From Bacteroidota bacterium (lineage in GTDB: Bacteria > Bacteroidota > Bacteroidia > Chitinophagales > Saprospiraceae), in contig JBEGMH010000344.1 in NCBI GenBank assembly GCA_041183125.1, positions 3,522 to 67,521 on the forward strand: a stretch of 64,000 bases of DNA, read 5' to 3'. The notes under the pieces are model-generated. The model saw only the letters and a list, made by a program, of their open reading frames with translations. It searched no databases and had not been told where the DNA came from. This document shows positions 6,604-60,612 of the stretch, one piece after another (positions within the stretch are counted from its first letter, which is position 1; the number at the start of each line of letters is the position of its first letter). Made by a program: the position numbers and the translations under genes.

Positions 6604-6682
6604 CAGACGGGTGGCGAGGAGAACGGTCGGGATATGAAAAAGCCCTTTCCGTTATCCTCTCCGATCCTTCGAAAGAAATCTA
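6604..6682. repeat. palindromic intergenic repeat, copy J
   Basis: Sequence: CAGACGGGTGGCGAGGAGAACGGTCGGGATATGAAAAAGCCCTTTCCGTTATCCTCTCCGATCCTTCGAAAGAAATCTA. It aligns by eye to copies C and M: the same arm (AGACGGGTGRCGAGG), an AAAAAGNCCTTT core and an ...TCTA end. It lies 26 nt upstream of the next start codon. Confidence 0.6.
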
Positions 6683-6708
6683 TTCTTTATTTTAAATAGA
6701 TTGCAATT

Positions 6709-8160
6709 ATGAAAAATATTATATTGTTTTTTTGTTTTATAACAATATTTTCAACTGTTTCCCCTGCTCTGGCACAAACGCCCGACCGCTCGACCTATCC
6801 CAAGCCTGGGGACTTGCGGCCGCTCCAGATCCCCGGCGTCCAGACCTTCCGGCTGGCCAACGGTTTGCCTGTTTATCTAGTTGAAAAACAAGACCTGCCC
6901 ATCGTTCAGATGATTTTTTCGTTCAACGGGGGAAGCGTATACGATCCTGCCGACAAGCCCGGCGTAGCCGCTATGACGGCCGACTTGATGGACGAAGGTG
7001 CCGGCAAACGCTCTGCGCTGGAATTGGCGGATGAAATCAGTTTTTTGGGCATTCAACTTGGTGCAGGAGCGGGTAGGGAGAACCTGTCCGTCTCTTTGTT
7101 TTCGCCGGTGTCCAAGCTCCAGCAAGCCCTGCCCCTGTTGGGGGATATCCTTCTGCGCCCTACTTTTGACGAAAAAGAACTGGATCGCAAACGCACGGAA
7201 GGCATCGTGCGCATCGCGCAAGCCCACGATGAGGCGCGTATCATCGCTTCGACTGCCTTTAACCAGCTTGTCTATGGCACGGGCCACCCCTACTCTACCC
7301 CTGCCGGTGGCACGGAAGCCTCCCTCAAAGCGATGCGCACAGAGGATCTGATCCAGCACCATAAAATGCACATCCATCCCAATAACGGATACTTAGTGAT
7401 TGCCGGTGCTATCTCAAAAGCCCAGGCTGAAGCGGAGCTGGGTATGCTTTTGAAAGACTGGAAAGGCGGGGCCCTGGCCTCAAAAGCCATCCCGGAGGTA
7501 CCAAAACCCAAAGGCGTGCAAGTATATCTCATCGACAAGCCGGGTGCGGCGCAATCAGAGCTCCGGTTTGGCCACCCCGGCGTTGCCCGCAGTACACCCG
7601 ATTACTTCCCCATCGAAGTCATGAACACCATCCTGGGCGCATCCTTCACTTCCCGACTCAACACCAATATCCGCGAAGTACACGGCTATGCCTACGGGGC
7701 AGGGTCAGCATTCTCCATGCTCCGTGGAAAAGGTATCTTCCTGGCATCTTCTTCCGTACAGACCGATGCCACCGACAAGGCCATCGGCGAGTTTTTTAAA
7801 GAATTCAATGCGATAAAGGAAATTCAAGCGGAAGAACTGGACAAAGCCCGCAACTACCTCGCCCTCGGCTATCCTTCCAACTTTGAATCCATTGAGGCCA
7901 TAGCCGAGCAGGTTTCCGACGTCTATTACTACAATCTCCCCGAAAATTTTCTCAACCAATACATTGGGAATGTACTGAAAGTGAGCGAGGCGGATGTAGA
8001 ACGCGTAGCGAAGACCTATATTGATCCGCGCAATATGGTGCTCGTCGTCGTCGGGGACCTATCCAAGATCGAAGCCGGCATCAAGGCCATGAAGCCCGGG
8101 AAGATCAACTACCTGACCAAAGAGCAAGTCCTGGGGCCGGTGCCCGTTTCTCCCAAATAG
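6709..8160 (+). CDS. M16 family peptidase-like protein (non-catalytic partner type)
   Basis: 483-aa ORF with a signal peptide and overall M16 architecture. The HxxEH position reads ADLMDEG, as in inactive M16 partner subunits. Confidence 0.8.
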   Translation: MKNIILFFCFITIFSTVSPALAQTPDRSTYPKPGDLRPLQIPGVQTFRLANGLPVYLVEKQDLPIVQMIFSFNGGSVYDPADKPGVAAMTADLMDEGAGKRSALELADEISFLGIQLGAGAGRENLSVSLFSPVSKLQQALPLLGDILLRPTFDEKELDRKRTEGIVRIAQAHDEARIIASTAFNQLVYGTGHPYSTPAGGTEASLKAMRTEDLIQHHKMHIHPNNGYLVIAGAISKAQAEAELGMLLKDWKGGALASKAIPEVPKPKGVQVYLIDKPGAAQSELRFGHPGVARSTPDYFPIEVMNTILGASFTSRLNTNIREVHGYAYGAGSAFSMLRGKGIFLASSSVQTDATDKAIGEFFKEFNAIKEIQAEELDKARNYLALGYPSNFESIEAIAEQVSDVYYYNLPENFLNQYIGNVLKVSEADVERVAKTYIDPRNMVLVVVGDLSKIEAGIKAMKPGKINYLTKEQVLGPVPVSPK

Positions 8161-8161
8161 C

Positions 8162-10540: not shown

Positions 10541-10562
10541 AGCGGGATGGGTGTCAAATACT

Positions 10563-10641
10563 GAGACTGGTTGCGGGAAAAGTCGTCAAGAGCACAAAAG
10601 ATACCTCTTTTTCACCTTTCCGACCCCTCGGAACGAGTCTG
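10563..10641. repeat. palindromic intergenic repeat, copy H
   Basis: Sequence: GAGACTGGTTGCGGGAAAAGTCGTCAAGAGCACAAAAGATACCTCTTTTTCACCTTTCCGACCCCTCGGAACGAGTCTG. It shares AGACTGGTTGCG and CCGACCCCTCG exactly with copy D. It lies 22 nt upstream of the start at 10540. Confidence 0.7.
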
Positions 10642-10730
10642 TTAAATAATATGGTACATCATCTTACCCAAAAGTACTATTATTTTAATACACATCCCGG
10701 AGATTTTTACAATCCATCGTCTACAACGGG

Positions 10731-11801: not shown

Positions 11802-11807
11802 TTTTAT

Positions 11808-14800: not shown

Positions 14801-16739
14801 ACGTGTCTAGGGCGGGTAGGGTCAGCGTAGTGTCCTTTCCATTGATTTGAAAAAATAATTTATACGCTGCGGCCTCCGGCACCGGCGTCCAGGAAAAGAC
14901 CGCCTGCCCGGTCCGGCTGAAGGAACATTCCGGTTCGGGGGCAGGCAGGGCCGTACGGACGTCCACCCGGAGGGTATCTGTTTTGGAGCAGCCTTTTTCA
15001 TCAAAATATTTCAGAACATAATTAGTTGTTTTCAATGGCTTTACGATTACCTCATCACAAGATGTACACGACAAACCTTCGGAGGGCGACCACTGGTAAG
15101 AGCGTTCGTTTCTACCTTTGAAGACGATGCTCCACTCTTCCAGGTATCCATACTGCAGCGAATCGAAGCCGTCGGACACCAAAAGGGCCCATTCGCCGGC
15201 AGCGCGTGCCCCTTGTAACTGATTCCAGTCCCCTTCCGGAGCAAAAACACCATTGAATGGAGCATCCCCGCGCGTCACGGAGAGCGATGCCCCCGGGGAG
15301 AAGCAAGTATGGGAATAATCGTCCAAACCGCCCCCGTTGCCACTGCTCAATTCCATCTGTTCCCCTGAAGGGGTGCGCAAAGCCAGGGTTATATCCTCGG
15401 CCCAATCGGTGCGAAGGGTCACGCATACACGCTCAATTTGCGCCACAGGGTTGTCCAATACCTGGAACGGCAGGGATTTTACAGGAAGCAAGGCGGCGTA
15501 AGGAGCTCCAGGTGGATGGTTGGCGTATCCGACCGGGTATTGTGGGTTGCTCTTATAGGCAAACAGGCTATCGCTTTGCGACAAGGCACCTACCTGGAGC
15601 GACAGGGAATCGCCCTCACAAATCGCGGTATCGGGCAGTACAGGGATTTCCGGCAGGCAATTCGGGCAGTCGGGGCTGCCTTGGGGCAGCACTTCCATCT
15701 GCAAGCGGTATTCCGACACACAGCCAAACGCATCGCTGGCCTGGAGGAGGTAGCTGCGAAGGCCTGCCGTATCGGCGAGAGCAGCCGCAGAGTCCCTCAG
15801 TTGGAACAGCATTTCCGGTTGGTAGCGCCAGCGCAGGCTCTGCACCACCGGGCGCAAGGTGTCGCCGGAAGCCCTGCGCACCCGGCCTGGGAACACCTGC
15901 AACAATTTTTGTCCTTGCGCCGTACCGATGGCCGCGTTCAGGCGCAGGGTGTCGCCGACACAAACTACGGGCGTCACCCCCGGAGCAGAGGGTACGAATA
16001 GCGGGCTGGGTACGACGAGGATCTCCGCCACGGGTTCCAAGGCCATACAACCGGCTGCGTCTATGGCCCGAACCCATAGAAAATTACTGCCGGAATCATT
16101 AAACATTTTATTGTATATCAATCCATTGCGTTCATTTTTGCCATTCAGTAGCCAGGATACGGACGTATTAGACAAAGCCTGCCCATAGCGCGACCCATTG
16201 TCTGGGAACGCCAGGGCGACCCTTGCCGAAATACTCTCCCCCTTACAAAGCGGGATTAGGGAAGGGTCGCTGGTATCGCGTTCTGCTTCTATTCCCTGCA
16301 CGTCCATAGAGATCCGCTGGCACAGCGTACCGCAGGAGAGGCTGGCATCCCAGCCCCGTCCCTGCCCTGTCGCATCTGAAACGAACAAGAAGGCAAGGCA
16401 TCCGCTCGTATTTTGCACGCTCGCCTGTACCTGAAAAGAGTCCAGTTCAATATTTTGTAGCGTCATCAGTATGGGCGACGTCGTGTCGGGTCCGTCGAAA
16501 ACGCGGAGGTAATCCCCTGCCCCCATTTGCAGGGAGTTAAAAAATAAACGCGACCCTGTACCAGCGCTATCCGGGCAAAAACGGACCAATGAGCGGGTAT
16601 TCGGAGGATAGTTGCCTGGGCCGTCTGAGAAACTGCCCCCACAAGCGCGGATACTGGTATCGCGAGGTATCGTGAACTGTGCCGATAGGGCGGTACTGCA
16701 TAACAAGAAAAAAAAGAGCAAGCAGTAAAAGCGAGCCAT
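11808..16739 (-). CDS. giant T9SS cargo adhesin (CUB-like, P-domain-like, about 10 SprB repeats, type-B gliding-motility C-terminal sorting domain)
   Basis: The ORF-track entry is 11808-16889. I moved the start to the Met at 16739 (MARFYCLLFFFLLCSTALSAQ signal peptide) because the upstream codons translate repeat copy A. Supporting motifs:
- SprB-type repeats such as CFGGNSGAALLSAAGGFPPYSYQLNG and CYGGTDGGVSATPSGGTAPYSYSWSG
- a P-domain-like EDITLALRTPSGEQMELSSGNGG...GEWALLVSD
- a C-terminal FSPNGDGANDLL...FDRWGQLVYE...GWDGTFRGQPLNPGLFVWRL. Confidence 0.85.
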   Translation of the reverse strand: MARFYCLLFFFLLCSTALSAQFTIPRDTSIRACGGSFSDGPGNYPPNTRSLVRFCPDSAGTGSRLFFNSLQMGAGDYLRVFDGPDTTSPILMTLQNIELDSFQVQASVQNTSGCLAFLFVSDATGQGRGWDASLSCGTLCQRISMDVQGIEAERDTSDPSLIPLCKGESISARVALAFPDNGSRYGQALSNTSVSWLLNGKNERNGLIYNKMFNDSGSNFLWVRAIDAAGCMALEPVAEILVVPSPLFVPSAPGVTPVVCVGDTLRLNAAIGTAQGQKLLQVFPGRVRRASGDTLRPVVQSLRWRYQPEMLFQLRDSAAALADTAGLRSYLLQASDAFGCVSEYRLQMEVLPQGSPDCPNCLPEIPVLPDTAICEGDSLSLQVGALSQSDSLFAYKSNPQYPVGYANHPPGAPYAALLPVKSLPFQVLDNPVAQIERVCVTLRTDWAEDITLALRTPSGEQMELSSGNGGGLDDYSHTCFSPGASLSVTRGDAPFNGVFAPEGDWNQLQGARAAGEWALLVSDGFDSLQYGYLEEWSIVFKGRNERSYQWSPSEGLSCTSCDEVIVKPLKTTNYVLKYFDEKGCSKTDTLRVDVRTALPAPEPECSFSRTGQAVFSWTPVPEAAAYKLFFQINGKDTTLTLPALDTFFLPPDFYASGDALRLAVEAVPDSNALFCGVRTGVVGCIYEPCTIAALVKQKQDALCFGGNSGAALLSAAGGFPPYSYQLNGTGNLSQDGIFENLVAGDYFAVAIDQNNCADTVFFAIGEAAAIGARIQVKSPIRCFGEKNGALMATAGNTSRRLRFEWNSGAVGDSISGLGSGRYVLTASDSLGCTATDTISLQEPQPLNAVLQTAAPSCFDKADGRISARVSGGDGNYRYAWSTGAGRDTLALLGAGYYCVTVSDGANCQTKECVQLAAPAALRIDSFSIVPVDCNGRRSGEVWAYANGGTIPYRYSWNDPLGQVGPLATMLGGGPVVLSIQDARGCLLKDTVVVPEPDALSVNLAAKEVSCYGGTDGGVSATPSGGTAPYSYSWSGRTATSSFINNLASGQYALSVTDKKGCRVFAQALVREPEEPLRLDLQQTESGCYGEKKNKVKALANGGTGPEYFFQWAHGATAAELSGLDSTRYALTVTDIKGCTANAAIQLKDLPEMEPNLIVNTPNCFGGSNGRIGINFVKGRPAVDFSRYAFKWSNGASGIAIANLRGDQEYTVTVTDPQGCQAITSRFLRQPIPIQPTLEKTDATCFGGSDGKAWVASVRAESKVFTYRWELPLTSVSGQVVSGLSQGTYRVVVTDEFGCFGEGKIEIAHPPQLSAAFVLGNNRCFGDATGSIQVQAGGGVGPYKIAWNDGGSGFERKNLLAGTYQLTLTDSKNCTALAQTELVPSSKLAIGLSAVPTTCFGASDGQINVVASGGKPPYSYSLNGKDFKLVPALIGLVAGNYDVYVRDGNGCQSFERAEVKSPPAFVVDAGLDSYRIKLGDTLTLKASATGAQGRVVFTWSEPYPGTLSCTGCAAPRSFPQNTISYELNGIDSVGCEASDRVTVNVGKERDILVPTGFSPNGDGANDLLLVHGLNGTRILVFQVFDRWGQLVYEAKDFFTNDAGIGWDGTFRGQPLNPGLFVWRLDAEYIDGYKESRRGQTTLLR

Positions 16740-16764
16740 ACCAGACTGCAAGGAGCTAAAAAAG

Positions 16765-16872
16765 AGCGGTTGTTCGTCTATGTGAGTACCTTTTGAACGG
16801 AGGGAAAAAGGTGCAGTATGGGCGAAAAAAGGCCTTTTCGATCTCTCGATGATTCCCCGCGCAACAAGTCTG
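16765..16872. repeat. palindromic intergenic repeat, copy A (left half degenerate)
   Basis: The right half, GGGCGAAAAAAGGCCTTTTCGATCTCTCGATGATTCCCCGCGCAACAAGTCTG, matches copies B and C closely. The left border is uncertain. It lies about 25 nt upstream of the adhesin start. Confidence 0.55.
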
Positions 16873-17055
16873 ATAAGTCTGGTATTCATCGGATATTTCA
16901 GGATTCGTGATATGAACCGGGTAAATCCAGCAGGATAACGCCATATTTAGGTTATTCCATGCAAATGAAAGGATATTTACCATAAAATGCGCAGTTGTTG
17001 ATGTGCAATGTCGCTACTTTGGCGATAAAAACAGCGGTTCCGTCCACTAAAATAC

Positions 17056-18811: not shown

Positions 18812-18818
18812 AACATTT

Positions 18819-18897
18819 GGCTTGTCGCGATAGGGAACCACCGAGGGTTAAAAAGCCCTTTTCGCATTTTTGCCAAGCCTTTTGCGCAACAAGTCTA
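18819..18897. repeat. palindromic intergenic repeat, copy B
   Basis: Sequence: GGCTTGTCGCGATAGGGAACCACCGAGGGTTAAAAAGCCCTTTTCGCATTTTTGCCAAGCCTTTTGCGCAACAAGTCTA. Its right end, GCAACAAGTCTATT, is identical to copy C. It ends 17 nt before the ATG at 18915. Confidence 0.65.
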
Positions 18898-25127: not shown

Positions 25128-25206
25128 GCCGGTCGGTTTGATACAGGCAGGGCTGTCGTAAAAGTATTCCGCCGCTTCCGCCTGAAAAATAAAACCAAGA
25201 AAGAGC

Positions 25207-25249
25207 ATCTGTTTTTTTGATTTTGCAAAGCAAAATCAAAAAAACAGAT
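25207..25249. repeat. perfect 43-nt AT-rich palindrome (20-bp arms, 3-nt loop)
   Basis: Sequence: ATCTGTTTTTTTGATTTTGC AAA GCAAAATCAAAAAAACAGAT. I checked all 20 arm positions base by base and they are complementary. It lies 79 nt upstream of the UbiA-like start and 15 nt from repeat copy C. Confidence 0.9.
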
Positions 25250-25264
25250 TCTCTTTCGAAATAT

Positions 25265-25344
25265 TAGACTTGTTGTGAGGGGGTCAGCGAGGTGGGAAAA
25301 AAGGACCTTTTTGACCCCTTGGTGATCCCCTTGCAACAAGTCTA
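25265..25344. repeat. palindromic intergenic repeat, copy C (best-preserved palindrome)
   Basis: Sequence: TAGACTTGTTGTGAGGGGGTCAGCGAGGTGGGAAAAAAGGACCTTTTTGACCCCTTGGTGATCCCCTTGCAACAAGTCTA. The terminal 11 nt are perfectly inverted (TAGACTTGTTG / CAACAAGTCTA). Its reverse complement aligns almost base for base with copy D. Confidence 0.85.
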
Positions 25345-25465
25345 TTCTTTAGTGGCCTTAGCGAAGTGCTTTTGAGGCAGCCACAAACATTTTTTGGTGG
25401 GCGAGGGCGAAAAATCTCTTGTAAGACAGTGCCCGTGACCATTCATGATGAGAAGCAGGGAGGGT

Positions 25466-28375: not shown

Positions 28376-28467
28376 AAGATAGAGGTTTTTGAAAATCTGC
28401 CCTCAATGCCCCAAAAAAGGCTGTTTTTGGGGCTTGTTGGGAGATTCCCTGCAATATAGCCCTTTTG

Positions 28468-28794
28468 TCAGGCTTGTCCAACGATAGGCATGTTAAAACT
28501 CATGGGCGGTATGGGAGGTTCTTCTTTGGACTCAATAGAGCCGAACTGGGCCTCGTAGCGCCGGACATTGTCGGCGAGGGCCTGGATCAGTCGTTTAGCG
28601 TGTTCGGGGGTTACGATGACCCGGGCTTTGACTTTTGCCTTGGGCACATTGGGCACCAACCGCACGAAGTCCAGTACGAATTCCGAATGAGAGTGGCTGA
28701 TGATTGCCAGATTGGCATAGGTGCCTTCTGCGATATCCTCCGGCAGCTCGATGTTGAGCTGATTGGGGTTGTTTTCCGTGTTCCTATCGTCCAT
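28468..28794 (-). CDS. DUF3467 domain-containing protein
   Basis: The ORF-track entry is 28468-28911, but its Lys/Arg-rich N-terminus is an alternate-frame read of the topA tail. I place the start at the Met at 28794 (MDDRNTENNPNQLNIELPEDIAEGTYANLAIISHSHSEFVLDF), 4 nt after the topA stop. Confidence 0.7.
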   Translation of the reverse strand: MDDRNTENNPNQLNIELPEDIAEGTYANLAIISHSHSEFVLDFVRLVPNVPKAKVKARVIVTPEHAKRLIQALADNVRRYEAQFGSIESKEEPPIPPMSFNMPIVGQA

Positions 28795-31631: not shown

Positions 31632-31718
31632 CAGATGGTTTATGAGGAATCAGAAAAGTGTGAAAAAGAGCCTTTTTGACCGCTGGACACGGTATTTCAA
31701 GTACGCCCTACAAACAAA
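31632..31718. repeat. palindromic intergenic repeat, copy G (degenerate)
   Basis: The segment CAGATGGTTTATGAGGAATCAGAAAAGTGTGAAAAAGAGCCTTTTTGACCGCTGG... retains the GAAAAAGNGCCTTTTTGACC core and a TGAGG arm. The right end is weak. It lies just upstream of the ATG at 31726. Confidence 0.4.
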
Positions 31719-32847: not shown

Positions 32848-32904
32848 CAGACGGATTGTGAGGGGAAGATTGCCCCCGCTCAACCCGCCCCAAACCACAA
32901 AACT
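32848..32904. repeat. short core-less variant of the palindromic repeat, copy K
   Basis: Sequence: CAGACGGATTGTGAGGGGAAGATTGCCCCCGCTCAACCCGCCCCAAACCACAAAACTG. The left arm matches copy C (AGAC..TTGTGAGGGG). The central A5GGCCT5 core is absent. It abuts the purB GTG start. Confidence 0.4.
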
Positions 32905-42936: not shown

Positions 42937-45900
42937 ATGGGACATCTTCCAAAATACTTCTTCCCCCTCAGTGTCTTGTATATTGCACTCTGCGCCGGTG
43001 CCAAAATCCAGGCACAGCCTTTGTTCCAGTCCATGCCCGCCGCCTCTACGGGCATTACTTTCGAAAACACCCTGCCGGAAACCCCCGAACTCAACATCAT
43101 CACCTACGAGTACTTCTACAACGGAGGAGGCGTAGGCGCCGGGGATTTCAACAAGGACGGATGGATAGACCTGTACTTCACCTCCAACCTCGGGCCCAAC
43201 AAGCTGTTTGTCAACCGGGGAGGTTTCCGTTTTGAGGACATCACTAAAAAAGCAGGCGTCGAAGGCAGCCGGGGCTGGAATACCGGGGTCTCCGTGGCCG
43301 ATGTGAACGGCGACGGGTGGCTCGATATCTATGTTTGCCGATCCGGTGAAGTAGCTCCTGAAAAAAGAAAAAACCTGCTCTTTATCAACAACGGGGACCT
43401 GACCTTTACGGAAAAAGCCGCCGAAATGGGCCTCGACGACTCCGGACACAGCACCATGGCCGCTTTTTTCGACATGGACCGCGACGGGGACCTCGATGCC
43501 TACGTGCTCAACCACAACATCAAACAGTTCCGGAACTTCGATGCTGCGTTCGTGAAAAACCAAATCGATCCCGACGCGGGCGACCACTTGTATGAAAACC
43601 GCAACGGCGTTTTTCATCCCATCACCCAGCAGGCAGGTATCAAGTCAAACCCCTTGGGCTATGGCCTCGGGTTGAACATCTCGGATATCAACGGCGACGG
43701 ATGGCCGGATATCTACGTGTCCAACGACTATGTGGAAGAAGATTACCTCTATCTCAACAACCAGAACGGCACCTTCCGGGAGGTGCTCAAGGAACAATTG
43801 CCCCATATCTCCAACTTTTCTATGGGCCTGGATATCGCAGATGTCAACAACGACGGTTGGCCCGATATTTTCACCCTCGACATGCTTCCGCGCGACAACG
43901 AACGCCAAAAGCTCTTGTACGCCCCCGACAACTTCGAGCTGTACAACAACATGGTGGAAAACGGGTTCCACCACCAGTTGATGCGCAACATGCTCCACCT
44001 GAACAACGGCAACGGCACCTTCAGCGAAATCGGCCAATTTGCCGGCATTTCCAACACCGACTGGAGCTGGTCTGCCCTGTTTGCCGATTACAACAACGAT
44101 GGCCGCAAAGACCTATTCGTGACGAATGGCTATGGTAGGGACATGATCAACCGGGACTTCATGAAGTTCTACGCCAACGAACGCCTCAAACACCTGCAAG
44201 GCAGTACGGATGATAAAATGTTTGGCATGCTTCAGTCCATCCGCTCAACCCCTTTGCAAAATTATATTTTCGAAAACCTCGAAGGGAACCGATTTGCAGA
44301 CCGCACCGACGCCTGGGGCTTGGCAGGAGCCGATTTCGCACATGGAGCCGTTTATGCCGACCTCGATAACGATGGCGACCTGGATCTCGTGTTCAACCGC
44401 ATGAACGCCCCGGCAGGGGTATTCAAAAATACAGCTACAGAGACGAAACGCTCCAAGGGATTCATTCGGGTAGAACTGCTTTCCAATACGAAAAATACGA
44501 ACGCATTAGGCGCAAAAGTGCGCGTATTTACGCCGGACGGGATTTACTCCTTTGAAAACAACGCCGTCCACGGGTTTCAGTCTTCTATGTCCGGGCCACT
44601 GCACATCGGCTTGCCTGGAGGAACGATTGACTCCATGATCATCACCTGGCCGAGCGGCCAGGTCCAGTGCGTGAAGCAGAACTTGAGCAGCGGAAAAACC
44701 TGGTCCTTCCGGGACAGCGACCCCTGTGTGCCTGCCTCAAATGTGGTATCCAAAACGACCCCTATCTTCCATAACCCTCCGGATACGCTGAAATACAGGC
44801 ACCAGGAGTGGCTGGTCAACGATTTTAAAGTGCAACCGCTCATACCGAACATGGTCTCTTATCACGGCCCGGAGACCGCAGTGGGCGATATCAATGCCGA
44901 TGGGCTGGAAGACTTCTACATCTGTGGCCCCGAGGGGCAGCCGGGTATGATTTTTCTCCAAGTGAAAAATGGGGCGTTCATTCCTTCCAACCAGCCTGCC
45001 CTTTTAGCAGATGCCCGATACGAAGATACCTATGCGGCGTTTTTTGATGCGGATGGCGATAAAGACCAGGACTTGTACGTAGTTTCCGGTGGATACGGTG
45101 CTACAGATTCTGGCTTGCCCCTCCACGACCGCCTGTACCTCAACAAAGGGGGAATGTTTTTCGCGGCTGCTGACAGTATGCTGCCTGCGCTCGATTTTGC
45201 AGGCTCTGTCGTGGTGCCCTGGGACTACGACCAGGACGGCGATATGGACCTTTTCATCGGGGCACGTGTGGAACAGGCCCATTACCCCAATGCCCCGGAA
45301 AGCGTCTTTTTAGAGAACAATGGCCAAGGCGTTTTCACCATAGCCTGGAAAGCCCGATTGGGCATGGTCACCCATGCCCTGGCCACAGATTTGGACAGGG
45401 ATGGCCGCCTGGAATTGGCCGTCTGCGGGGAATGGTCCGCCCTTCAGTTCTTTGGGTTCCGCGAGGGCCAGTTTCTAGAACTTTCGAAAAATATCATGCC
45501 GAACCCCCGGAAAGGCTGGTGGAACGTGCTCCACGCCGCCGACCTCGATGCCGACGGAGACCCGGACCTCATCGCCGGCAACTGGGGTTTAAACGCGCAG
45601 TTCAAAGCTTCTGACAAAGAACCGGTTGAGCTCTACTACGATGATTTTGACGGAAACGGGTACCTAGACCCCATTATGTGCTACTACATTGACGGCGTAT
45701 CCTGCCCCTTCCCAACCCGCGACGAAATAACAGACCAAATCGTAGGCTTGAGAAAGAAATTCGTGACCTACGATTCGTATGCCAACGCGACCCTCCCCAA
45801 CATTTTCAGTACCGAACAAGTTGCCAAAAGCCCCCGGCTCGAAGTCAATACCTTAGAGACGATGTGGTGGGAAAACAAAAATGGGGTGCTCCATCCCCGA

Positions 45901-46218
45901 AGTTTCCCATCGGAAGCCAACTTTTCGCCCGTCCATGCCATTTTAGTACAAGACTTCGACCGGGACGGAAGCGTAGATATCCTTCTGGCCGGCAACGTTG
46001 AATATACCCGGATACGGATTGGCCGAACAGATGCCAATTATGGCTGCCTGCTGAAAGGGAACGGAAACGGGACTTTTTCCTATGTCCCGCAGTTGGCCTC
46101 CGGCCTGAGCATACGTGGGGCAGTCAGAAGCATAAGGCCCATCCGAGGACGCGAAGGCCATACGTCTATCCTGGTGGGAATCAACAACCAGTCCCCCTTG
46201 ATTTTAAAAACCAGATGA
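42937..46218 (+). CDS. VCBS/FG-GAP repeat protein with UnbV/ASPIC domain (CRTAC1-like)
   Basis: 1093-aa ORF with a signal peptide. It has many FG-GAP/VCBS repeats (DVNGDGWLDIYV, DINGDGWPDIYVSND, DVNNDGWPDIFTLD, DYNNDGRKDLFVTNG, DLDNDGDLDLVF). The UnbV_ASPIC-like segment is NALGAKVRVFTPDGIYSFENNAVHGFQSSMSGPLHIGL. Confidence 0.85.
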   Translation: MGHLPKYFFPLSVLYIALCAGAKIQAQPLFQSMPAASTGITFENTLPETPELNIITYEYFYNGGGVGAGDFNKDGWIDLYFTSNLGPNKLFVNRGGFRFEDITKKAGVEGSRGWNTGVSVADVNGDGWLDIYVCRSGEVAPEKRKNLLFINNGDLTFTEKAAEMGLDDSGHSTMAAFFDMDRDGDLDAYVLNHNIKQFRNFDAAFVKNQIDPDAGDHLYENRNGVFHPITQQAGIKSNPLGYGLGLNISDINGDGWPDIYVSNDYVEEDYLYLNNQNGTFREVLKEQLPHISNFSMGLDIADVNNDGWPDIFTLDMLPRDNERQKLLYAPDNFELYNNMVENGFHHQLMRNMLHLNNGNGTFSEIGQFAGISNTDWSWSALFADYNNDGRKDLFVTNGYGRDMINRDFMKFYANERLKHLQGSTDDKMFGMLQSIRSTPLQNYIFENLEGNRFADRTDAWGLAGADFAHGAVYADLDNDGDLDLVFNRMNAPAGVFKNTATETKRSKGFIRVELLSNTKNTNALGAKVRVFTPDGIYSFENNAVHGFQSSMSGPLHIGLPGGTIDSMIITWPSGQVQCVKQNLSSGKTWSFRDSDPCVPASNVVSKTTPIFHNPPDTLKYRHQEWLVNDFKVQPLIPNMVSYHGPETAVGDINADGLEDFYICGPEGQPGMIFLQVKNGAFIPSNQPALLADARYEDTYAAFFDADGDKDQDLYVVSGGYGATDSGLPLHDRLYLNKGGMFFAAADSMLPALDFAGSVVVPWDYDQDGDMDLFIGARVEQAHYPNAPESVFLENNGQGVFTIAWKARLGMVTHALATDLDRDGRLELAVCGEWSALQFFGFREGQFLELSKNIMPNPRKGWWNVLHAADLDADGDPDLIAGNWGLNAQFKASDKEPVELYYDDFDGNGYLDPIMCYYIDGVSCPFPTRDEITDQIVGLRKKFVTYDSYANATLPNIFSTEQVAKSPRLEVNTLETMWWENKNGVLHPRSFPSEANFSPVHAILVQDFDRDGSVDILLAGNVEYTRIRIGRTDANYGCLLKGNGNGTFSYVPQLASGLSIRGAVRSIRPIRGREGHTSILVGINNQSPLILKTR

Positions 46219-47548: not shown

Positions 47549-47552
47549 AGGC

Positions 47553-48953: not shown

Positions 48954-48987
48954 GAAAATATGGAATTTTTCCATTTCAAAATCAATG

Positions 48988-49033
48988 GGTTTGTGGCGAG
49001 GAGTCAGAGGGAGTCTCCCCGCCACAAACCTCT
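48988..49033. repeat. short core-less variant of the palindromic repeat, copy N
   Basis: Sequence: GGTTTGTGGCGAGGAGTCAGAGGGAGTCTCCCCGCCACAAACCTCT. The arms are inverted (GTTTGTGGCG / CGCCACAAAC). GTGGCGAGGAG is identical to copy J, and the right end resembles copy D. It lies 34 nt upstream of the GH13-like start. Confidence 0.45.
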
Positions 49034-49111: not shown

Positions 49112-49366
49112 ATGACTGAACAGCGACTTAAAAAGTACTGGAAAAAACACCTGAACTATCTGTATTCCCTTCTTGGGATATGGTTTTTTGCGTCCTTCGG
49201 GTTCGGGATTATTTTTCGCAAGCAACTGGACGCCCTATCCTTCAGCGGGTTCAAACTTGGGTTCTGGTTTGCGCAAAACGGCGCCATCTTCGCTTTCATC
49301 GCGCTCATATTCGTCTATGTGCGCCTGATGAACAGCCTGGACAAGGAGTATGACGTGGATGAATAG
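49112..49366 (+). CDS. DUF4212 small membrane protein (solute:sodium symporter small subunit)
   Basis: The ORF-track entry is 49064-49366. I place the start at the Met at 49112 (MTEQRLKKYWKKHLNYLYSLLGIWFFASFGFGIIF), which is typical DUF4212. It lies upstream of an SSS transporter. Confidence 0.8.
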   Translation: MTEQRLKKYWKKHLNYLYSLLGIWFFASFGFGIIFRKQLDALSFSGFKLGFWFAQNGAIFAFIALIFVYVRLMNSLDKEYDVDE

Positions 49367-49444
49367 TAGACTGGTTGCGTGGGGATCATCAAGGGGTCAA
49401 AAAGGCCTTTTTTCCCCACTTCCCCGACCCCTCGCCAACCTCTA
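49367..49444. repeat. palindromic intergenic repeat, copy D
   Basis: Sequence: TAGACTGGTTGCGTGGGGATCATCAAGGGGTCAAAAAGGCCTTTTTTCCCCACTTCCCCGACCCCTCGCCAACCTCTA. It starts immediately after the DUF4212 TAG stop and ends 38 nt before the symporter ATG. Confidence 0.85.
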
Positions 49445-51224: not shown

Positions 51225-51292
51225 TGGTCTTGTTGAAAGGGGGTACGCCCCAAAGGGTTAAAAACCCTTTGCCGACCCTCACAACCAGTCTG
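51225..51292. repeat. palindromic intergenic repeat, copy E
   Basis: Sequence: TGGTCTTGTTGAAAGGGGGTACGCCCCAAAGGGTTAAAAACCCTTTGCCGACCCTCACAACCAGTCTG. It has the same order of blocks as copy D. It ends 35 nt before the SOD ATG. Confidence 0.65.
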
Positions 51293-51327
51293 TTATCTTT
51301 ATTTTTACAAAAAAATCTATTTCTGTC

Positions 51328-52335: not shown

Positions 52336-52357
52336 CCACCTGCTCTAACCCATTGTT

Positions 52358-53160: not shown

Positions 53161-53518
53161 AGAAAAGCCGGTAGAGGGCAACTTCCAGCGCCAGGATAAA
53201 CAACACGGCATTGATGATAATGGCTTGTTTTTCCCCTTTTCGGTAGTGGTAGAGGCCAGCCATGACCATGATGGCAGCCAAGCCAAGACCTGCGAGACCC
53301 GTCAGCCAGGGCAGGATTCCCGTTGCGTAGGGAAGGATCAAGCCCACTGCCCCCAACAACTCCGCTATACCGACGTACCGGACCGTTTGAACGGGGTAAT
53401 CGTTTACCCAAGGCATGTTGGGGGCTAACTTGTCTATCGGTTGTGTGGCCTTGACGACACCGGCCAGGCCGAACAATACGGCTAAAACGACCTGAATGAT
53501 CCAATAAAGCGTGTTCAT
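53159..53518 (-). CDS. DoxX family small membrane protein
   Basis: 119-aa ORF with four hydrophobic helices and a DoxX-like N-terminus (MNTLYWIIQVVLAVLFGLAGVVKATQP). I prefer it to the overlapping 170-aa Arg/Pro-rich ORF in another frame. Confidence 0.7.
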   Translation of the reverse strand: MNTLYWIIQVVLAVLFGLAGVVKATQPIDKLAPNMPWVNDYPVQTVRYVGIAELLGAVGLILPYATGILPWLTGLAGLGLAAIMVMAGLYHYRKGEKQAIIINAVLFILALEVALYRLF

Positions 53519-53604
53519 AGCGTATAATCGTGTGTGAAAAAATCATTTGGGAACGCAAACATAAGGAAAAATACGCCAAAAAGATACCCTCGGATCAACC
53601 CTGT

Positions 53605-54444: not shown

Positions 54445-54589
54445 AATTAAAATTTTATTTTGTTATCCATAAAAAACTGTTTTCGTTACCAAAGCGCCAA
54501 GACGGTCGGTATTTATTTTGGAAATGTACAAAAAAACCTCCAAAGCCTTGCAGTGCGGAAGAAAAACAGGTACTTCCTGATTTTTTTCT

Positions 54590-54597
54590 TACTTTTG
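54590..54597 (+). promoter_or_regulatory. candidate Bacteroidota -7 promoter box (TAnnTTTG)
   Basis: TACTTTTG is an exact consensus match, 31 nt upstream of the ATG at 54629. Confidence 0.3.
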
Positions 54598-54628
54598 AAC
54601 ATTGATCAACCTGAATAATACCAGCACC

Positions 54629-55108
54629 ATGAAGCAATTCATCCTCCTGGCGTCTCTTGGCCTTTCTTTTATAGCCCTCTCCTGCAACAACGACAAAGGG
54701 ATACGCGAAGAAGCAGAGCGCTCTCTCGGTCAGCCCGGCGTCCAGGCACCGTCGCCCGCTACGCCCGCTACGCCAAATCCAGCTACGGCTACAGCTGCTG
54801 CCCCCGGCGGTGTCGCCCACTACATCTGCCCCAACAACTGTGCCGGAAGCGGCGGGGATGCGACGGGTACTTGCCCGACCTGTGGAACGACCTACATCCA
54901 CAACCAGGCATACCACGACCAGGCCAGCCCTCAAATCAGCACCCAAGTACCTCCCACCCCGGCACCACAAACCACCGATCCGCCCCAGAATGCGGCCGGG
55001 GTTTGGCACTACACGTGCAGCAAAGGCTGTGCAGGCGGTGCAGGGACGGCCGTAGCTTGTGCTTCCTGCGGCCAGATGCTGGCGCACAACGCTGCCTACC
55101 ATAATTAG
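54629..55108 (+). CDS. hypothetical lipoprotein with two tandem Cys4/His3 motifs
   Basis: The ORF-track entry is 54602-55108. The Met at 54629 gives a lipoprotein signal (MKQFILLASLGLSFIALSCNND). There are two repeats, HYICPNNCAGSGGDATGTCPTCGTTYIHNQAYH and HYTCSKGCAGGAGTAVACASCGQMLAHNAAYH, separated by Pro/Ala/Thr linkers. Confidence 0.6.
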   Translation: MKQFILLASLGLSFIALSCNNDKGIREEAERSLGQPGVQAPSPATPATPNPATATAAAPGGVAHYICPNNCAGSGGDATGTCPTCGTTYIHNQAYHDQASPQISTQVPPTPAPQTTDPPQNAAGVWHYTCSKGCAGGAGTAVACASCGQMLAHNAAYHN

Positions 55109-55208
55109 ACTAGCCGGGAGGGGCTCCTCGGGGACTCAGCGGGGTGAGACGGGCTCAAAAGACCTTTTTCGCCTCACTCCGCTGGCCTCCCGCCCGCGTC
55201 CACTAGCT
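55106..55208. repeat. palindromic intergenic repeat, copy F (longer variant)
   Basis: Sequence: TAGACTAGCCGGGAGGGGCTCCTCGGGGACTCAGCGGGGTGAGACGGGCTCAAAAGACCTTTTTCGCCTCACTCCGCTGGCCTCCCGCCCGCGTCCACTAGC. It shares TCAGCGRGGTG and AAAAGRCCTTTTT with copy C. Its first three bases are the TAG stop of the lipoprotein gene. Confidence 0.6.
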
Positions 55209-55231
55209 TCCTTTTTTTGGTTATAGATACT

Positions 55232-57424: not shown

Positions 57425-57429
57425 CAGCC

Positions 57430-58536
57430 CTACCGCTGGTGTTTGGCCAAAAAACGCAGCGGGGCAGCTACGCTTTGGGTTCGCAACCACCTGTAATACA
57501 AGGCTTCCTCAGAACCTTCCGGAAAATGGGCTGCCAGGAGGTTAAAAATCCAGCGGGCAGGTTTGGAATTGGCTTCGAGCATAATAGGCCCCTGGTCACG
57601 GGTGAGCAGGATATCAAGGCCCAGTTCCGCGAAAGGGCCAAAATCAGCTGCCAGAGCCCGCGCACAATCCAGCGATAGGGCTTCGATGCGGTGTGCCCAG
57701 GCCTCGTGCCCAGAACCCGCCGCGGCGAATACAGAATCCAGTGCTTGCAAAGGCAGCGCCTCCCCCCCGGCATGCAGATTGGACACCGGGCTTCCGGGAG
57801 CGCCAACCCGAACCCCCATCCCGCTTACCTGATGTGGGCCTTCTCCTGTTTGCTGTACCAGTACGCGCACATCATAGGCGCGGTTCTCAAAGGGGATCAA
57901 CGCTGCCCCCGGCTGCAGAAGGTACTGGACAGGTGGGAAATGGCTTTGCAAAAAAGAAAAGAGCTCCCGGGGGGCAAGGATACGCACTTTACCCTCTGCT
58001 TTCACGACCACGCCATTTTCCTGCCATTCTGCGATGGCAATACCTTTTCCCCTGGATCCCGTAACGGGTTTCACATAGAGACAGCCCGACGCCTCGAGAA
58101 GCGCTATGCACTGCTGTTCGTCCATCTCCGAGTATAAAAAGGCCGGGAGGGAAGGGATGGAGTGCCGGGCCAGGAAAGCGTGGAACGCCCACTTGTCGTT
58201 GGTCAGCTCCATCAACGGGACGGGATTGGCGAAACAGGTGCCACACTCCGCCAAATACGTCCTGAATTGCTCGTAAAACGAGCGCTCAGAGGGGATTTCC
58301 GTAAAATAGCGGTCATAGACCCGTGTGGGCAAAGGGTTTTCTTTGGGCACCCAATTGCCCTTTTGGCATTCCCATCCGGATAAAACCGGGCGGATGCCTG
58401 GCTGGGGGCCAAAAAAGAACAGCTCGACGCCCATGCGGTTTGCCTCTTCCCACAACTCCATGAAGAAAAGCAGTTGCTTACCGGAAGGCGGGGAGCTAAG
58501 TCCGGTTTGGGTCAACACCCCTATTGTGTTCGTCAT
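57430..58536 (-). CDS. YheC/YheD-family ATP-grasp protein
   Basis: 368-aa ORF with ATP-grasp elements: NDKWAFHAFL, LYVKPVTGSRGKGI, YDVRVLVQ, VRVGAPGSPVSNLHAGGEA and MLEANSKP. Its ATG overlaps the upstream stop (ATGA at 58533-58536). Confidence 0.75.
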   Translation of the reverse strand: MTNTIGVLTQTGLSSPPSGKQLLFFMELWEEANRMGVELFFFGPQPGIRPVLSGWECQKGNWVPKENPLPTRVYDRYFTEIPSERSFYEQFRTYLAECGTCFANPVPLMELTNDKWAFHAFLARHSIPSLPAFLYSEMDEQQCIALLEASGCLYVKPVTGSRGKGIAIAEWQENGVVVKAEGKVRILAPRELFSFLQSHFPPVQYLLQPGAALIPFENRAYDVRVLVQQTGEGPHQVSGMGVRVGAPGSPVSNLHAGGEALPLQALDSVFAAAGSGHEAWAHRIEALSLDCARALAADFGPFAELGLDILLTRDQGPIMLEANSKPARWIFNLLAAHFPEGSEEALYYRWLRTQSVAAPLRFLAKHQR

Positions 58537-60527
58537 AACGCCCCGTTTGCCTGCATGGATTTCCGGTAGTCCACAAAAAAGTACAAGCTGTCGGGGTTGC
58601 GCATGGAGTCTATGTTGGCGGCACTCTCAGGTGCTTTGCCCATCAGTATTTTCTTTACCGGCATTTCCATTTTTTTCCCGCTGATGGTGTAGGGCAGTTC
58701 CGGCACGGCAACGATGGCATCCGGTACGTGTCGGGGGGAGTGCTCCGTGCGCAGGGCGCGCACTATCGTTTGCCGGAGCCGCTCGTCGAGCGATACTCCT
58801 GGGCAGAGTACAATGAAAAGCGGCATAAAAAAGCGCCCCTGTGGCAACTCGAGGTTGACCACGAGGCTATCTGAGATGTCGGGAATCCGGTCCAGGGTGC
58901 GGTAGATTTCCGCGGTTCCTATTCTGACCCCCTGGCGGTTCAGGGTAGCGTCCGAACGTCCGTAGATGACCAAGGTGCCACGAGGCGTAATGCGCACCCA
59001 GTCCCCGTGCCGCCAAACGCCCGGGTACATATCAAAGTAGCTTTCGCGATAACGGCTGCCATCGGAGTCATTCCAAAAGCCGGTTGGCATGGAGGGCATG
59101 GGCTGCAACACCACCATTTCCCCCACTTCATCCTCTAAAGGGTTTCCATGCTCATCAAAAGCATCGAGGGCGCAGCCGAGGGCACGGCACTGGATTTCGC
59201 CCCGGTACACCGGCAACAGGGGGCAACCGCCCACAAACGCGGTACAAACATCTGTTCCTCCGCTCATCGAGCACAACCAGACCTCTCTCCCGATGGCTTT
59301 CTGTACGTAATCGAATGCTTCTGGAGGAAGCGGGGAACCGGTGGAACCAACCGAGCGGATTGAACTGAGATCAAAGCGTTTGCAGGGCTCCAGGCCCATC
59401 TTCATGCCCGCGACCAGAAAGGAAGCGCTCGTGCCGAAATGGTGTATGCCCGCGCTGTCGGCCAATTCCCACAATACGCTGAGGTCCGGCCAGGAAGGGC
59501 TTCCGTCGTACAACACCAGCGTCGCTCCAAGTAACAGGGAAGACTGGGCAAAGTTCCACATCATCCAGCTGGTCGTGGAGTACCAGAAAAAGCGTTCGCC
59601 TGCCCGCACATTGTTGTGGAAGGCCAGGTATTTCAAATGTTCCAGCAAGATCCCGCCCTGGCCATGTACCATCGCCTTCGGTGGCCCGGTCGTGCCGGAA
59701 GAATACAGCACCAGCAACGGATGGTCGAACGGCAAACGCTGGAAGTTCAGTACCGCAAGCGGGTCGGAACTGGCTTTTTCCCAAAGGACCTGCGGAATCC
59801 CTGTAACGACGGCTGCCCGTTTGTCGAGGTTGGGCACCAGGACGAGGTGTTCCAGAGAGCTCAGCGATGCGCAAAGCTCCTGTACTACGTCGAGGCGATG
59901 GAAGGGTTTTCCACCATAGGTATAGCCGTCCACGGCGATCAAAATGCGCGGGGCAATCTGTTGAAAACGGTCCATTACGCTGTTGGCCCCAAAATCCGGC
60001 GAACAGCACGACCATACCGCACCGATCGAACTACACGCCAAAAACGCGATCGTCGCCTCCGGTATGGCGGGAAGGTAGCCCCCTACCCGATCGCCCGGTC
60101 CAACCCCCTGCTGCTTGAGCCATGCCGCAAAAGCAGCTGTTTTTTGCCGCAGCTCCTCCCAGGAAAACACCCTGATCTCCCCGGACCGCTCGGAGCGGAA
60201 CAAAAGCGCCGGGCGCTGCGGGGAAGCAGCGCGAAAGACGTGTTCGGCGTAGTTCAGCGAAGTGCCCGGAAACCATTTTGCACCGGGCATCGTCCGGGAG
60301 GCAAGTACCGCCTCGTACTGCCCATCAGCTAAAATGCCAAAATACTCCCACAGGCTTCCCCAGAAGGCTTCGATATCGCGGACCGACCAGCGCCAGAGCG
60401 CTTCGTAATCCTCGAATTCCAAGTCCCGGTGTTGCTTGAGCCAAGTGAGGTAATCGTTGATGGGAGCACCTGTGAGGAAGGCCTCGGAGGGCGTCCAGTA
60501 GGGAACGGGCTGCAAATCATGCTTCAT
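58533..60527 (-). CDS. acetoacetate-CoA ligase (acetoacetyl-CoA synthetase family)
   Basis: The ORF-track entry is 58533-60671. I place the start at the Met at 60527 (MKHDLQPVPYWTPSE). It has the AMP-binding motif LYSSGTTGPPKAMVH and an AACS-like N-terminal region (WRWSVRDIEAFWGSLWEYF). Confidence 0.9.
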   Translation of the reverse strand: MKHDLQPVPYWTPSEAFLTGAPINDYLTWLKQHRDLEFEDYEALWRWSVRDIEAFWGSLWEYFGILADGQYEAVLASRTMPGAKWFPGTSLNYAEHVFRAASPQRPALLFRSERSGEIRVFSWEELRQKTAAFAAWLKQQGVGPGDRVGGYLPAIPEATIAFLACSSIGAVWSCCSPDFGANSVMDRFQQIAPRILIAVDGYTYGGKPFHRLDVVQELCASLSSLEHLVLVPNLDKRAAVVTGIPQVLWEKASSDPLAVLNFQRLPFDHPLLVLYSSGTTGPPKAMVHGQGGILLEHLKYLAFHNNVRAGERFFWYSTTSWMMWNFAQSSLLLGATLVLYDGSPSWPDLSVLWELADSAGIHHFGTSASFLVAGMKMGLEPCKRFDLSSIRSVGSTGSPLPPEAFDYVQKAIGREVWLCSMSGGTDVCTAFVGGCPLLPVYRGEIQCRALGCALDAFDEHGNPLEDEVGEMVVLQPMPSMPTGFWNDSDGSRYRESYFDMYPGVWRHGDWVRITPRGTLVIYGRSDATLNRQGVRIGTAEIYRTLDRIPDISDSLVVNLELPQGRFFMPLFIVLCPGVSLDERLRQTIVRALRTEHSPRHVPDAIVAVPELPYTISGKKMEMPVKKILMGKAPESAANIDSMRNPDSLYFFVDYRKSMQANGAL

Positions 60528-60544
60528 AGTGCCAAATATTGGGT

Positions 60545-60612
60545 TAGACGGGTGACGAGGGGTTAGCCAAATGAGAAAAAATAAGCGTATAAAATTACCT
60601 TTTTTTGTAACA
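60545..60612. repeat. palindromic intergenic repeat, copy M (right half degenerate)
   Basis: In TAGACGGGTGACGAGGGGTTAGCCAAATGAGAAAAAATAAGCGTATAAAATTACCTTTTTTTG, the left 19 nt nearly match copy J (AGACGGGTGRCGAGG). It lies in the 106-bp divergent control region. Confidence 0.45.

Follow-up and report, generated by a model that had tools for sequence, protein, structure and literature searches.

The stretch of DNA considered here, hereafter the window, comprises 64,000 nucleotides of a Saprospiraceae bacterium of the phylum Bacteroidota (GenBank assembly GCA_041183125.1, contig JBEGMH010000344.1, positions 3,522 to 67,521 of the forward strand). It encodes SprB-repeat, PorP/SprF and CHU_C proteins of type IX secretion, SusC/D-like proteins and housekeeping genes, and the gaps between its genes hold 9-12 copies of an imperfect palindrome. 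Proteins of the window were matched on metagenome contigs only, and its UbiA is 66% identical to the orthologue of Haliscomenobacter hydrossis; because this identity is only 66%, the host appears to be an uncultured Saprospiraceae lineage, kin to metagenome-assembled genomes (MAGs) labelled Haliscomenobacter. In a preliminary description, made by reading the sequence, the palindrome was presented as an element of about 80 nt with at least 12 copies, likened both to MITEs (miniature inverted-repeat transposable elements) and to repetitive extragenic palindromic (REP) sequences. The analysis reported here makes it very probable that these ~80-nt palindromes are worn-down copies of a ~163-nt MITE, which represents a new family of a known kind, residing in the Haliscomenobacter-like lineage.

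A window profile built with nhmmer from three seeds in one iteration detected nine non-overlapping loci (Table 1) at 19.5-70 bits, whereas 20 dinucleotide-preserving shuffles of the window gave a top score of 11 bits and zero matches at E<0.01. The copies are thus significantly similar by hidden Markov model (HMM), a check that the preliminary description had proposed, and the three copies it had quoted (C, D and H) lie where it had placed them. The locus at 55100-55179 was outside the training set, yet reached 19.5 bits (E=3e-5). Repeat detection paired C with D over 70 nt at 83% and linked further loci near 6600, 16830 and 51270. The bare 11-mer of the terminal inverted repeat (TIR) is not enriched in the window (16 matches, 10.7 expected), so that the signal must be carried by the whole element. 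Besides the nine solid loci, there are one half copy (M) and two plausible minimal hairpins (K and N); the recurrence of the palindrome is therefore real, but the earlier count of at least 12 includes a half copy and two members that are not individually significant.

The intact form of the element is found outside the window. A scan of 185,579 reference genomes with a pattern consisting of the TIR plus the core returned at least 68 loci, at least 60 of them from one MAG, 'uncultured Haliscomenobacter sp.' CAZSMU01, where many lie at the very ends of contigs. In these MAG loci a strong match is regularly followed by a weaker one 45 nt on, and the alignment of 16 such places gives one unit whose length, flanking T and A included, is ~165 nt and whose inverted termini measure 18 nt; similarity between the 16 aligned copies stops exactly at the TAGAC.../...GTCTA tips. 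The intact element (AGAC...GTCT) measures ~163 nt, is non-coding, forms an imperfect palindrome over nearly its full length and is bounded by 17-nt TIRs (AGACTTGTTGCGAGGGG / CCCCTCGCAACAAGTCT) that show 0 mismatches in many copies. In the fetched loci (designated below by L numbers) the full-length model has at least 120 matches, at least 38 of them complete, and TIR pairs fall into size classes of ~160 nt (n=32) and 70-89 nt (n=14), with a further class of 37-44 nt. All forms, whether ~163, ~80 or ~40 nt, are too short to code for a transposase. Among the matches listed, a contig end truncates ~27 copies near model position 50, as is characteristic of a repeat that breaks k-mer assembly.

Aligned to this full unit, the ~80-nt copies of the window correspond to its left and right arms with the centre missing. 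The preliminary description was right in seeing a palindromic, TIR-bounded element, but the unit it defined is a deletion derivative of the ~163-nt one, and the AAAAAGGNCCTTTTT core, which it took for the element's centre, is a scar left by internal deletion. Conversely, one copy that it counted among the short ones, at site 16, is a decayed long form scoring 64 bits with the full-length model. The window copies, being short forms plus this one decayed long form, are all old. Their folding shows the same history: the consensus, whose folding the preliminary description had proposed to examine, folds into one long hairpin (-76.8 kcal/mol, z=-9.3), and the A-run and T-run pair with each other inside its stem, but copy C (-54.2 kcal/mol, z=-11) is the only window copy that folds far better than its shuffles, the others having z-scores from -0.4 to -3.5 (H about -2.5; site 31, at -0.4, no better than shuffles).

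The flanks of the copies carry a short target-site duplication (TSD). When the element is taken as GAC...GTC, they read T-A-W-T-A on both sides, and the TA dinucleotides seen around several copies had been interpreted as a possible TA duplication of the IS630/Tc1-mariner kind. All symmetric frames and lengths were compared with 1000 permutations of the right flanks among copies. In the 3-bp frame, with the element as AGAC...GTCT, the repeat is perfect in 22 of 48 copies (permutation mean 8.3, maximum 16; 0/1000 reach the observed value), and the central base is the same on both sides in 36/48, against a permutation mean of 19.7 (0/1000). A TA repeat is present in 26/48 copies against a permutation mean of 22.7, a value reached by 38/1000 permutations, and it is uninformative since TA is nearly constant, A occupying position -1 in 43/50 copies and T position +1 in 45/50. 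The perfect triplet is found in 17/25 long copies with at least 88% identity to the consensus versus 1/12 older ones, an age dependence that is expected of a real duplication; in the window, site 18 and copy C both carry ATT/ATT (in copy C at 25263-25265 and 25344-25346). Three copies with odd flanks (L058, GATG-AAT-[..GTCG]-AAT; L032, AGT/AGT; L062, ATA/ATA) fit the symmetric 3-bp frame only. Other frames were rejected: the two asymmetric 3-bp frames, which were not permuted, gave 18 and 12 perfect repeats versus 22 for the symmetric one; a 5-bp duplication (TAWTA) is contradicted by a pattern of outer-base mismatches that is impossible for a real 5-bp duplication; and a 1-bp duplication flanking a TAGAC...GTCTA element is subsumed by the 3-bp frame, the sole explanation of L058, L032 and L062. 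The duplication is 3 bp long (AAT/ATT), within a T-AWT-A target, and is not TA. The TA seen at the flanks is half element and half duplication, as on each side one of its bases is the terminal A or T of a TIR and the other is duplicated. Moreover, with A as its first and T as its last base, the element re-forms T-AWT-A at both borders on every insertion, which explains why several copies abut with exactly three bases between them (GTCT-AAT-AGAC).

These same data bear on the view that the copies are IS630/Tc1-mariner MITEs, with GAC...GTC ends, insertion into TA with its duplication, and mobilization by an IS630-family transposase. TA does adjoin GAC/GTC in most copies, and IS630-derived elements are the commonest type of bacterial MITE (PMC4853749). 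However, TA matching hardly departs from the permuted value, the agreement of the base outside TA is predicted by a 3-bp but not by a TA duplication, copies lacking TA on one side still have matching triplets, and the TIRs resemble the ends of IS5-family elements and no IS630 end that was compared. This origin is very unlikely, and an IS630 partner is likewise unlikely.

Insertion polymorphism was seen by comparison with syntenic contigs of sister lineages, obtained via the PorP/SprF, UbiA and SSF orthologues, whose DNA identity to the window is ~84% in species B and ~82-85% in species C (the MAG lineage). As the preliminary description had proposed to verify, four window sites are empty in these relatives. 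Site 6 is empty in four species-B contigs (...CACCTG-CG-TATTCTTTAC...); H is absent from the orthologous spacer in species B (L071/L072) and in L075; C has no counterpart in the orthologous gap, either in species C or in the more distant relative L081, the flanks in species C being too diverged for an empty site to be defined at the nucleotide level; and D is present in the close sister L114, where an intact right TIR is followed by AAC and then by a second remnant, but absent in L117 and L115. Reciprocally, a pristine MAG copy lies after the SprB-like stop codon at a place where the window is empty and reads GATAAATAAAAATG. This copy is split over two contigs, and its presumed right side in L075 reads ...GTCT-AAT-AGACTTGTCAAGA-AAT-ATGG. 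No copy was found in the syntenic 20 kb of H. hydrossis DSM 1100 or of a second Haliscomenobacter MAG.

Other sites are shared between species and have decayed differently. Site 16 is common to species B (L071:4924-5054, 75 bits), and species C keeps only its right half; site 18 has a long form in species B (L071:2810-2965, 98 bits) and a decayed short form in species C; site 31 also occurs in species C (L076:3554-3650, 37 bits). At site 51 the window has a short form, L114 the ~40-nt minimal form, and L117 no copy at all. The junctions of the short forms also differ: of the two A-run/T-run motifs, some forms retain GGCCC of the left one, and others retain GACTC of the right one. The series at sites 18 and 51 and the differing junctions indicate that the centre was lost recurrently and in place, the supposed core being the scar of this loss. 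K and N, earlier described as short variants without the core, are 45-50-nt hairpins whose arms, judged by eye, are TIR-like at 12-13/17 positions; they are comparable to the 37-44-nt minimal forms of the relatives and would represent the next deletion step, but neither is significant by HMM.

The deletion series also decides against a REP/BIME-type repeat spread by a RAYT (an IS200/IS605-like Y1 transposase). Such a repeat would likewise appear as a dispersed intergenic palindrome with no transposase nearby, and the ~40-nt minimal forms approach the size of REPs; yet REPs have neither unit-bounding TIRs nor a target duplication, while the present repeat has TIRs of 17 nt and a TSD of 3 bp. 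Its minimal forms arose by deletion from longer copies at the same sites, and the window contains no Y1 transposase. The probability left to this explanation is close to nil, and the REP-like label should be dropped for an element with long TIRs and a TSD.

With respect to genes, all window copies are intergenic, as first described, and so are most copies elsewhere: 32/37 complete MAG copies lie outside open reading frames (ORFs), in loci that are ~87% coding. The gaps that hold MAG copies are divergent in 15 cases, co-directional in nine and convergent in two, and in the co-directional ones orientation relative to transcription (6 vs 3) shows no preference. The gap between the two M16 genes measures 116 nt with the element and ~37 nt without it, and the DUF4212-SSF spacer is 42-57 nt long where the element is lacking. 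The proximity of copies to start codons that had been pointed out is real, but arises because the elements fill spacers that are otherwise very short; similarly, copies do occur in divergent gaps, where the AT-rich target, which leads to promoter-proximal and stop-codon-proximal placement, and purifying selection suffice as explanation. Neither pattern indicates a promoter function. Given the avoidance of genes, the lack of orientation bias and the decay with age, the pattern looks like that of selfish DNA tolerated only between genes, with incidental hairpin effects on transcripts.

The contrary idea, that the host itself encodes the copies as functional hairpins, be they terminators, attenuators, mRNA stabilisers or protein-binding sites, and that their function conserves them, would agree with their location near start and stop codons and inside operons, with the very stable folding of intact copies, and with the retention of three sites in three species; MITEs such as the Correia elements are also known to affect transcripts. 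Against it, the orthologous sites of four window copies are empty in sister species, copies decay toward shuffle-level folding, orientation is unbiased with respect to transcription, and no Rfam family corresponds to the element. The T-run lies within the stem and not after it, which is not the design of an intrinsic terminator; terminators were rejected for this pairing of the A/T runs in the stem and for the co-directional orientations. Finally, sharp ends, TSDs and a recent near-identical burst that breaks assembly are hallmarks of transposition. Conservation by function is thus extremely unlikely as the origin of the repeat.

The properties observed here, namely a small and non-coding unit, sharp TIRs, a fixed 3-bp TSD, many copies and insertion polymorphism, cover the whole structural definition of a MITE, a demonstrated partner apart, and agree with the dispersed, non-autonomous, palindromic MITE first proposed. 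The element does not belong to a named family that we could find, which is also what had been said of it. Rfam 15 gave zero matches at gathering score over the window, and permissive Rfam searches returned only generic miRNA-hairpin noise (15-23 bits, against cut-offs of 45-100). A literature search with the TIR string returned only unrelated PCR primers, no publication describing the element was found, and a paper on MITEs of Thiomargarita proved unrelated. By eye, no TAnnTTTG motif is seen in the consensus.

As for the partner, the best indication comes from ISPg4, an insertion sequence (IS) of the IS5 family in Porphyromonas gingivalis, which shares with its MITE, MITEPgRS, the TIRs GAGACTGTTGCA ... 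CGCAACAGTCTC (PMC4596501, Table 2). These match the ends of the present element, (T)AGACTTGTTGCG ... CGCAACAAGTCT(A), the only differences being a single 1-nt indel and the end bases; among the 12 TIRs compared, the ISPg4 alignment has a shuffle p of 0.002 on the left and 0.0004 on the right, and 0.1% of random window 12-mers equal the ISPg4 TIR score. Several IS5 subgroups produce TSDs of 2-4 bp. IS5 relatives have TSDs of 0, 2 or 3 bp (PMC12730594), a range that includes the 3 bp found here, and small IS5-family elements are common in Bacteroidota (PMC3196728). Because of the ISPg4-like TIRs and the TSD length, a partner of the IS5 type may be the most likely one, a tentative assignment to which we give slightly less than an even chance.

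The data show that the copies form one family, where its members end and what size classes they have, as well as the 3-bp duplication, the filled and empty orthologous sites, the deletion series in place, the restriction to intergenic DNA and the absence of an orientation bias; the transposase family, the transposition chemistry and any effects on expression are inferred. A DDE-type transposase supplied in trans would move the element, its source most probably being an IS5-family element with ISPg4-like ends. Insertion would take place into AT-rich T-AWT-A with duplication of the central 3 bp, and the target recreated at both borders would permit the abutting copies, 3 bp apart. Thereafter the centre is lost stepwise by deletion between the two A-run/T-run hairpin motifs (~163 to ~80 to ~40 nt), copies also decay by point mutation, and insertions survive only between genes. 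Where copies are co-transcribed, as would be the case for D in the DUF4212-SSF operon and for site 6 between the M16 genes, the mRNA would gain a stem-loop, with possible consequences for its stability or termination; there is no sign that such a role keeps the copies in place.

Several observations weigh against this account. Pfam searches found no transposase in the window, Y1 transposases included, as had been noted before. No autonomous partner lies between TIR pairs in ~0.7 Mb of fetched loci, where no DDE_Tnp_1-type gene bounded by these TIRs was found: in MAG loci, the genes lying between TIRs spaced 0.2-4 kb apart are ordinary ones (NAD(P)HX-type, ABC ATPase, gatC-like), loose pairs (AGAC-N1-3-GTTGC) enclose a 2-oxoacid dehydrogenase E1, a thymidine kinase and a peroxidase, and all HMM matches confined to the left arm or to the right arm are short forms or contig-end truncations. 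The loci have no repeat of at least 300 nt in common. Metagenomes were scanned for TIRs that continue into sequence other than the arm (IUPAC not-G/not-A codes), which yielded no partner but only minimal forms, chance matches in unrelated GC-rich contigs, and solo TIRs whose neighbours are glgB, pheS/hisS or a helicase gene; viral contigs gave six TIR matches with no support beyond the TIR, and the plasmid collection gave no match. The proposed check for a transposase with matching inverted repeats was therefore negative in the sequences searched, and the IS5 link consists of similarity over 12 nt of TIR, which is a resemblance and not proof, together with the TSD length. As to the duplication, 8/25 young copies have no perfect repeat, most being one substitution off, and no filled/empty pair of a young copy is resolved at both junctions to the nucleotide, so that the 3-bp TSD is founded on many-copy statistics and partial junctions; at the right junction in L075 the same AAT triplet is followed by a 13-nt remnant palindrome, which is consistent but not clean. 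In addition, the context statistics use crude ORF calls, and the persistence of sites 16, 18 and 31 across three species might mean that some of them have acquired a function.

A less ordinary reading would combine a transposase other than a conventional IS partner, the partner having been lost from these genomes or being an unrecognised or horizontally supplied enzyme, with the self-regenerating target and with co-option of sites 16, 18 and 31 as 5'-leader or regulatory hairpins. Were it true, the regenerating T-AWT-A would drive local pile-ups and tandem arrays, the element could colonise promoter-proximal DNA with unusual efficiency, and site 16, with 4 nt between its end and the SprB-like start codon, would be an example of co-option. 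We consider this combination unlikely, and retain the account of a MITE of known kind with, possibly, an IS5-type partner. The individual copies of the window are compiled in Table 1.

Table 1. Copies of the palindromic element in the window, with the corresponding matches of the window profile and the genes around them.
Copy	Position	Strand	Form and score	Profile match	Setting and remarks
Site 6	6605..6681	+	decayed short form, 77 nt; HMM 59.8 bits	6598-6690	between two co-directional M16 peptidase genes
H	10564..10640	+	short form, 77 nt; 56.8-74 bits	10555-10649	23 nt upstream of TPR/PD40/SPOR gene start; downstream of PorP/SprF
Site 16	16743..16871	-	decayed long form, 129 nt; 64.2 bits with full-length model, positions 2-146	16793-16878	divergent folD / SprB-like gap; SprB-like ATG (16739-16737) 4 nt past decayed right end
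Site 18	18818..18896	+	short form, 79 nt; 49.7 bits	18809-18904	between prmA and 1,500-aa gene; flanks ATT/ATT
C	25266..25343	-	best-preserved short form, 78 nt; 70-85 bits	25258-25351	between DUF1573 and UbiA; perfect 3-bp duplication
Site 31	31637..31710	-	decayed short form; 42.4 bits	31624-31715	divergent topA / bioD-like gap
K	32849..32889	+	tentative candidate minimal form (TIR-only hairpin); not significant by HMM		between bioD-like gene and purB; TIR-like arms AGACGGATTGTGAGGGG / CCCCCGCTCAACCCGCC
N	48987..49032	+	tentative candidate minimal form; HMM 3 bits, chance level		upstream of DUF4212; hairpin GGTTTGTGGCGAGGAG...CTCCCCGCCACAAACC, TIR likeness by eye
D	49368..49443	+	short form, 76 nt; 67-81 bits	49360-49451	begins 2 nt past DUF4212 stop codon, 39 nt before SSF symporter start; right end fused with abutting remnant copy
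Site 51	51226..51291	+	short form, 66 nt; 38.6 bits	51218-51299	between SSF symporter and superoxide dismutase gene
Site 55	55107..55205	+	~95-100-nt variant with longer G/C-rich arms; 19.5 bits	55100-55179	divergent gap; left flank ATT
M	60546..60612	-	half copy, weak; 10.2 bits with 3-seed model only		one arm (TAGACGGGTGACGAGGGGTTAGCC...) well preserved, other degenerate (by eye against right-arm consensus)

Some further features were noticed around these copies. At site 16, a 9-nt partial duplicate of the TIR start (AGACTTATC) occupies 16872-16880, directly outside the left end (ACC-AGACTTATC-AGACTTGTTGCG), and may be the stub of an older abutting copy. Upstream of the SprB-like gene, the non-coding block at 16893-17010 shows an identity of 95% with species B and of 85% with species C, which equals or exceeds the conservation of the flanking genes; it has no Rfam match even at E<=1, and might act as a promoter or leader or encode an unannotated small RNA. 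In the folD-SprB spacer of species B there is a solo 22-nt TIR (TAGACTTGTTGCGAGGGGGCAG; L071 ~4766-4790), which is not in the window (~17020) and is the remnant of a further insertion or of an excision. In L114 (~60-75) the stop codon TAG of DUF4212 is composed of the last base of the target triplet and the first two bases of the element (GAA-T/AG-AC), so that the insertion supplied or replaced this stop codon; the window has a tandem TAG-TAG there (49361-49371). A few bases from copy C, positions 25199-25257 form a 59-nt near-perfect palindrome with 28-nt arms that are 96% complementary (GAAAGAGCATCTGTTTTTTTGATTTTGC / GCAAAATCAAAAAAACAGATTCTCTTTC), which is single-copy in all fetched sequence and absent from the orthologous spacer of species C; it could be the DUF1573 terminator or a different small insertion.

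The DUF3467-amidase spacer of the window (28391-28480) contains no more than a weak relic, perhaps a decayed one, which has a GCCCCAAAAACAGCCTTTTTTGGGGC hairpin and scores 5 bits, and the same spacer in species C holds a clear short-form copy (L077:4472-4538, 37 bits); an apparent polymorphism within that lineage was dismissed, as it is only an N-masked stretch in the MAG record. Note also that L096, L099 and L100, which are marine or aquatic metagenome contigs with near-identical surroundings across samples, contain an exact 17-nt TIR match in a terminator-like hairpin (TAGACTTGTTGCGAGGGGCTTGTTGCCCCTCGC) followed by T7, either a coincidence or a minimal derivative in an unrelated lineage. L055 (NZ_JAIXST010000228.1, from a 'Runella sp.' MAG) and L060 (JBIKUE010000209.1, from a Saprospiraceae MAG) are 93.5% identical over 1.5 kb and carry a MITE copy at the same site; from this likeness the 'Runella' contig is probably a mis-binned Saprospiraceae contig. 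The direct-repeat families at 43300-45570 (GDxNGDGxxD-type), within a 1,093-aa ORF (42937-46218), are protein-level repeats of FG-GAP/VCBS-like type and are unrelated to the MITE.

Biologically the element is an ordinary further bacterial MITE, and its interest is mostly practical. Haliscomenobacter-like Saprospiraceae are common in activated sludge and fresh water. The element visibly fragments their MAGs, the ~27 contig ends mentioned above falling inside it in one MAG, and a model of it aids scaffolding and the spotting of mis-binned contigs. It also causes annotation errors, where ORFs are called through copies: the SprB-like ORF is called from an ATG at 16889 across the whole copy at site 16, a signal-peptide-like start being present at 16739 (ATA in the MAG), and a 1,521-aa gene call in L001 (2260-6825) starts inside copy 18. 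Furthermore, the element offers a clean natural series for the erosion of a long palindrome at orthologous sites (~163 to ~80 to ~40 nt), as well as an example of a target site regenerated by the insertion itself. If the partner were indeed of the IS5 type, IS5-derived MITEs in Bacteroidota would be known from outside Porphyromonas, too.

Among known systems, the element resembles in its workings above all the Correia elements (CREE/NEMIS) of Neisseria, the best analogue for possible mRNA effects of the copies; these are palindromic MITEs of ~100-155 bp with long TIRs and two sizes resulting from internal deletion, present in hundreds of gene-adjacent intergenic copies that are co-transcribed as hairpins. 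They also carry defined promoter elements, an integration host factor (IHF) site and RNase III sites. Like the present element, they are palindromic MITEs with long and short forms near genes; unlike it, they duplicate TA, have 26-bp TIRs of unrelated sequence and inhabit Proteobacteria, and an identity of the two was rejected on TIR sequence and length, the 3-bp TSD and the Bacteroidota host. Correia elements are also mentioned in PMC4853749. RUP of Streptococcus pneumoniae and Nezha of cyanobacteria, which are IS630-derived, are similarly small, TIR-bounded, high-copy, intergenic and non-autonomous, but the TA duplication that defines this type is not what the permutation of flanks found here. 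REP/BIME and ERIC sequences of Proteobacteria are also dispersed, intergenic imperfect palindromes that form transcript hairpins; REPs, however, are 20-40 nt long, RAYT-dependent and without TSD, and ERIC has no demonstrated TSD or transposase, whereas the element described here combines TIRs with a TSD and shows presence/absence polymorphism. Tourist-like MITEs of the PIF/Harbinger group, eukaryotic relatives of IS5, resemble it in being short, palindromic, non-autonomous derivatives with a 3-bp AT-rich TSD (PMC12730594). They differ in being eukaryotic and have no sequence relationship to it. Their canonical TSD is TWA, against AWT here.

In its ends, the element appears closest to the IS5-derived MITEs of P. 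gingivalis, a member of the same phylum, namely MITEPgRS/MITE464 and BrickBuilt, whose partners are ISPg4 and ISPg1 (PMC4596501, PMC2575886). Both these MITEs and the present one lack coding capacity, are bounded by TIRs and lie between genes, and their sites are filled in some strains or species and empty in others. Those of P. gingivalis, however, measure 239-720 bp, contain internal tandem repeats, number 10-20 copies and have irregular TSDs of 2-5 bp, whereas the element described here, for which no partner IS was found and which has no internal sequence similarity to them, is ~163 nt long, wholly palindromic and flanked by a regular 3-bp TSD, with at least 100 matches in a partial MAG.

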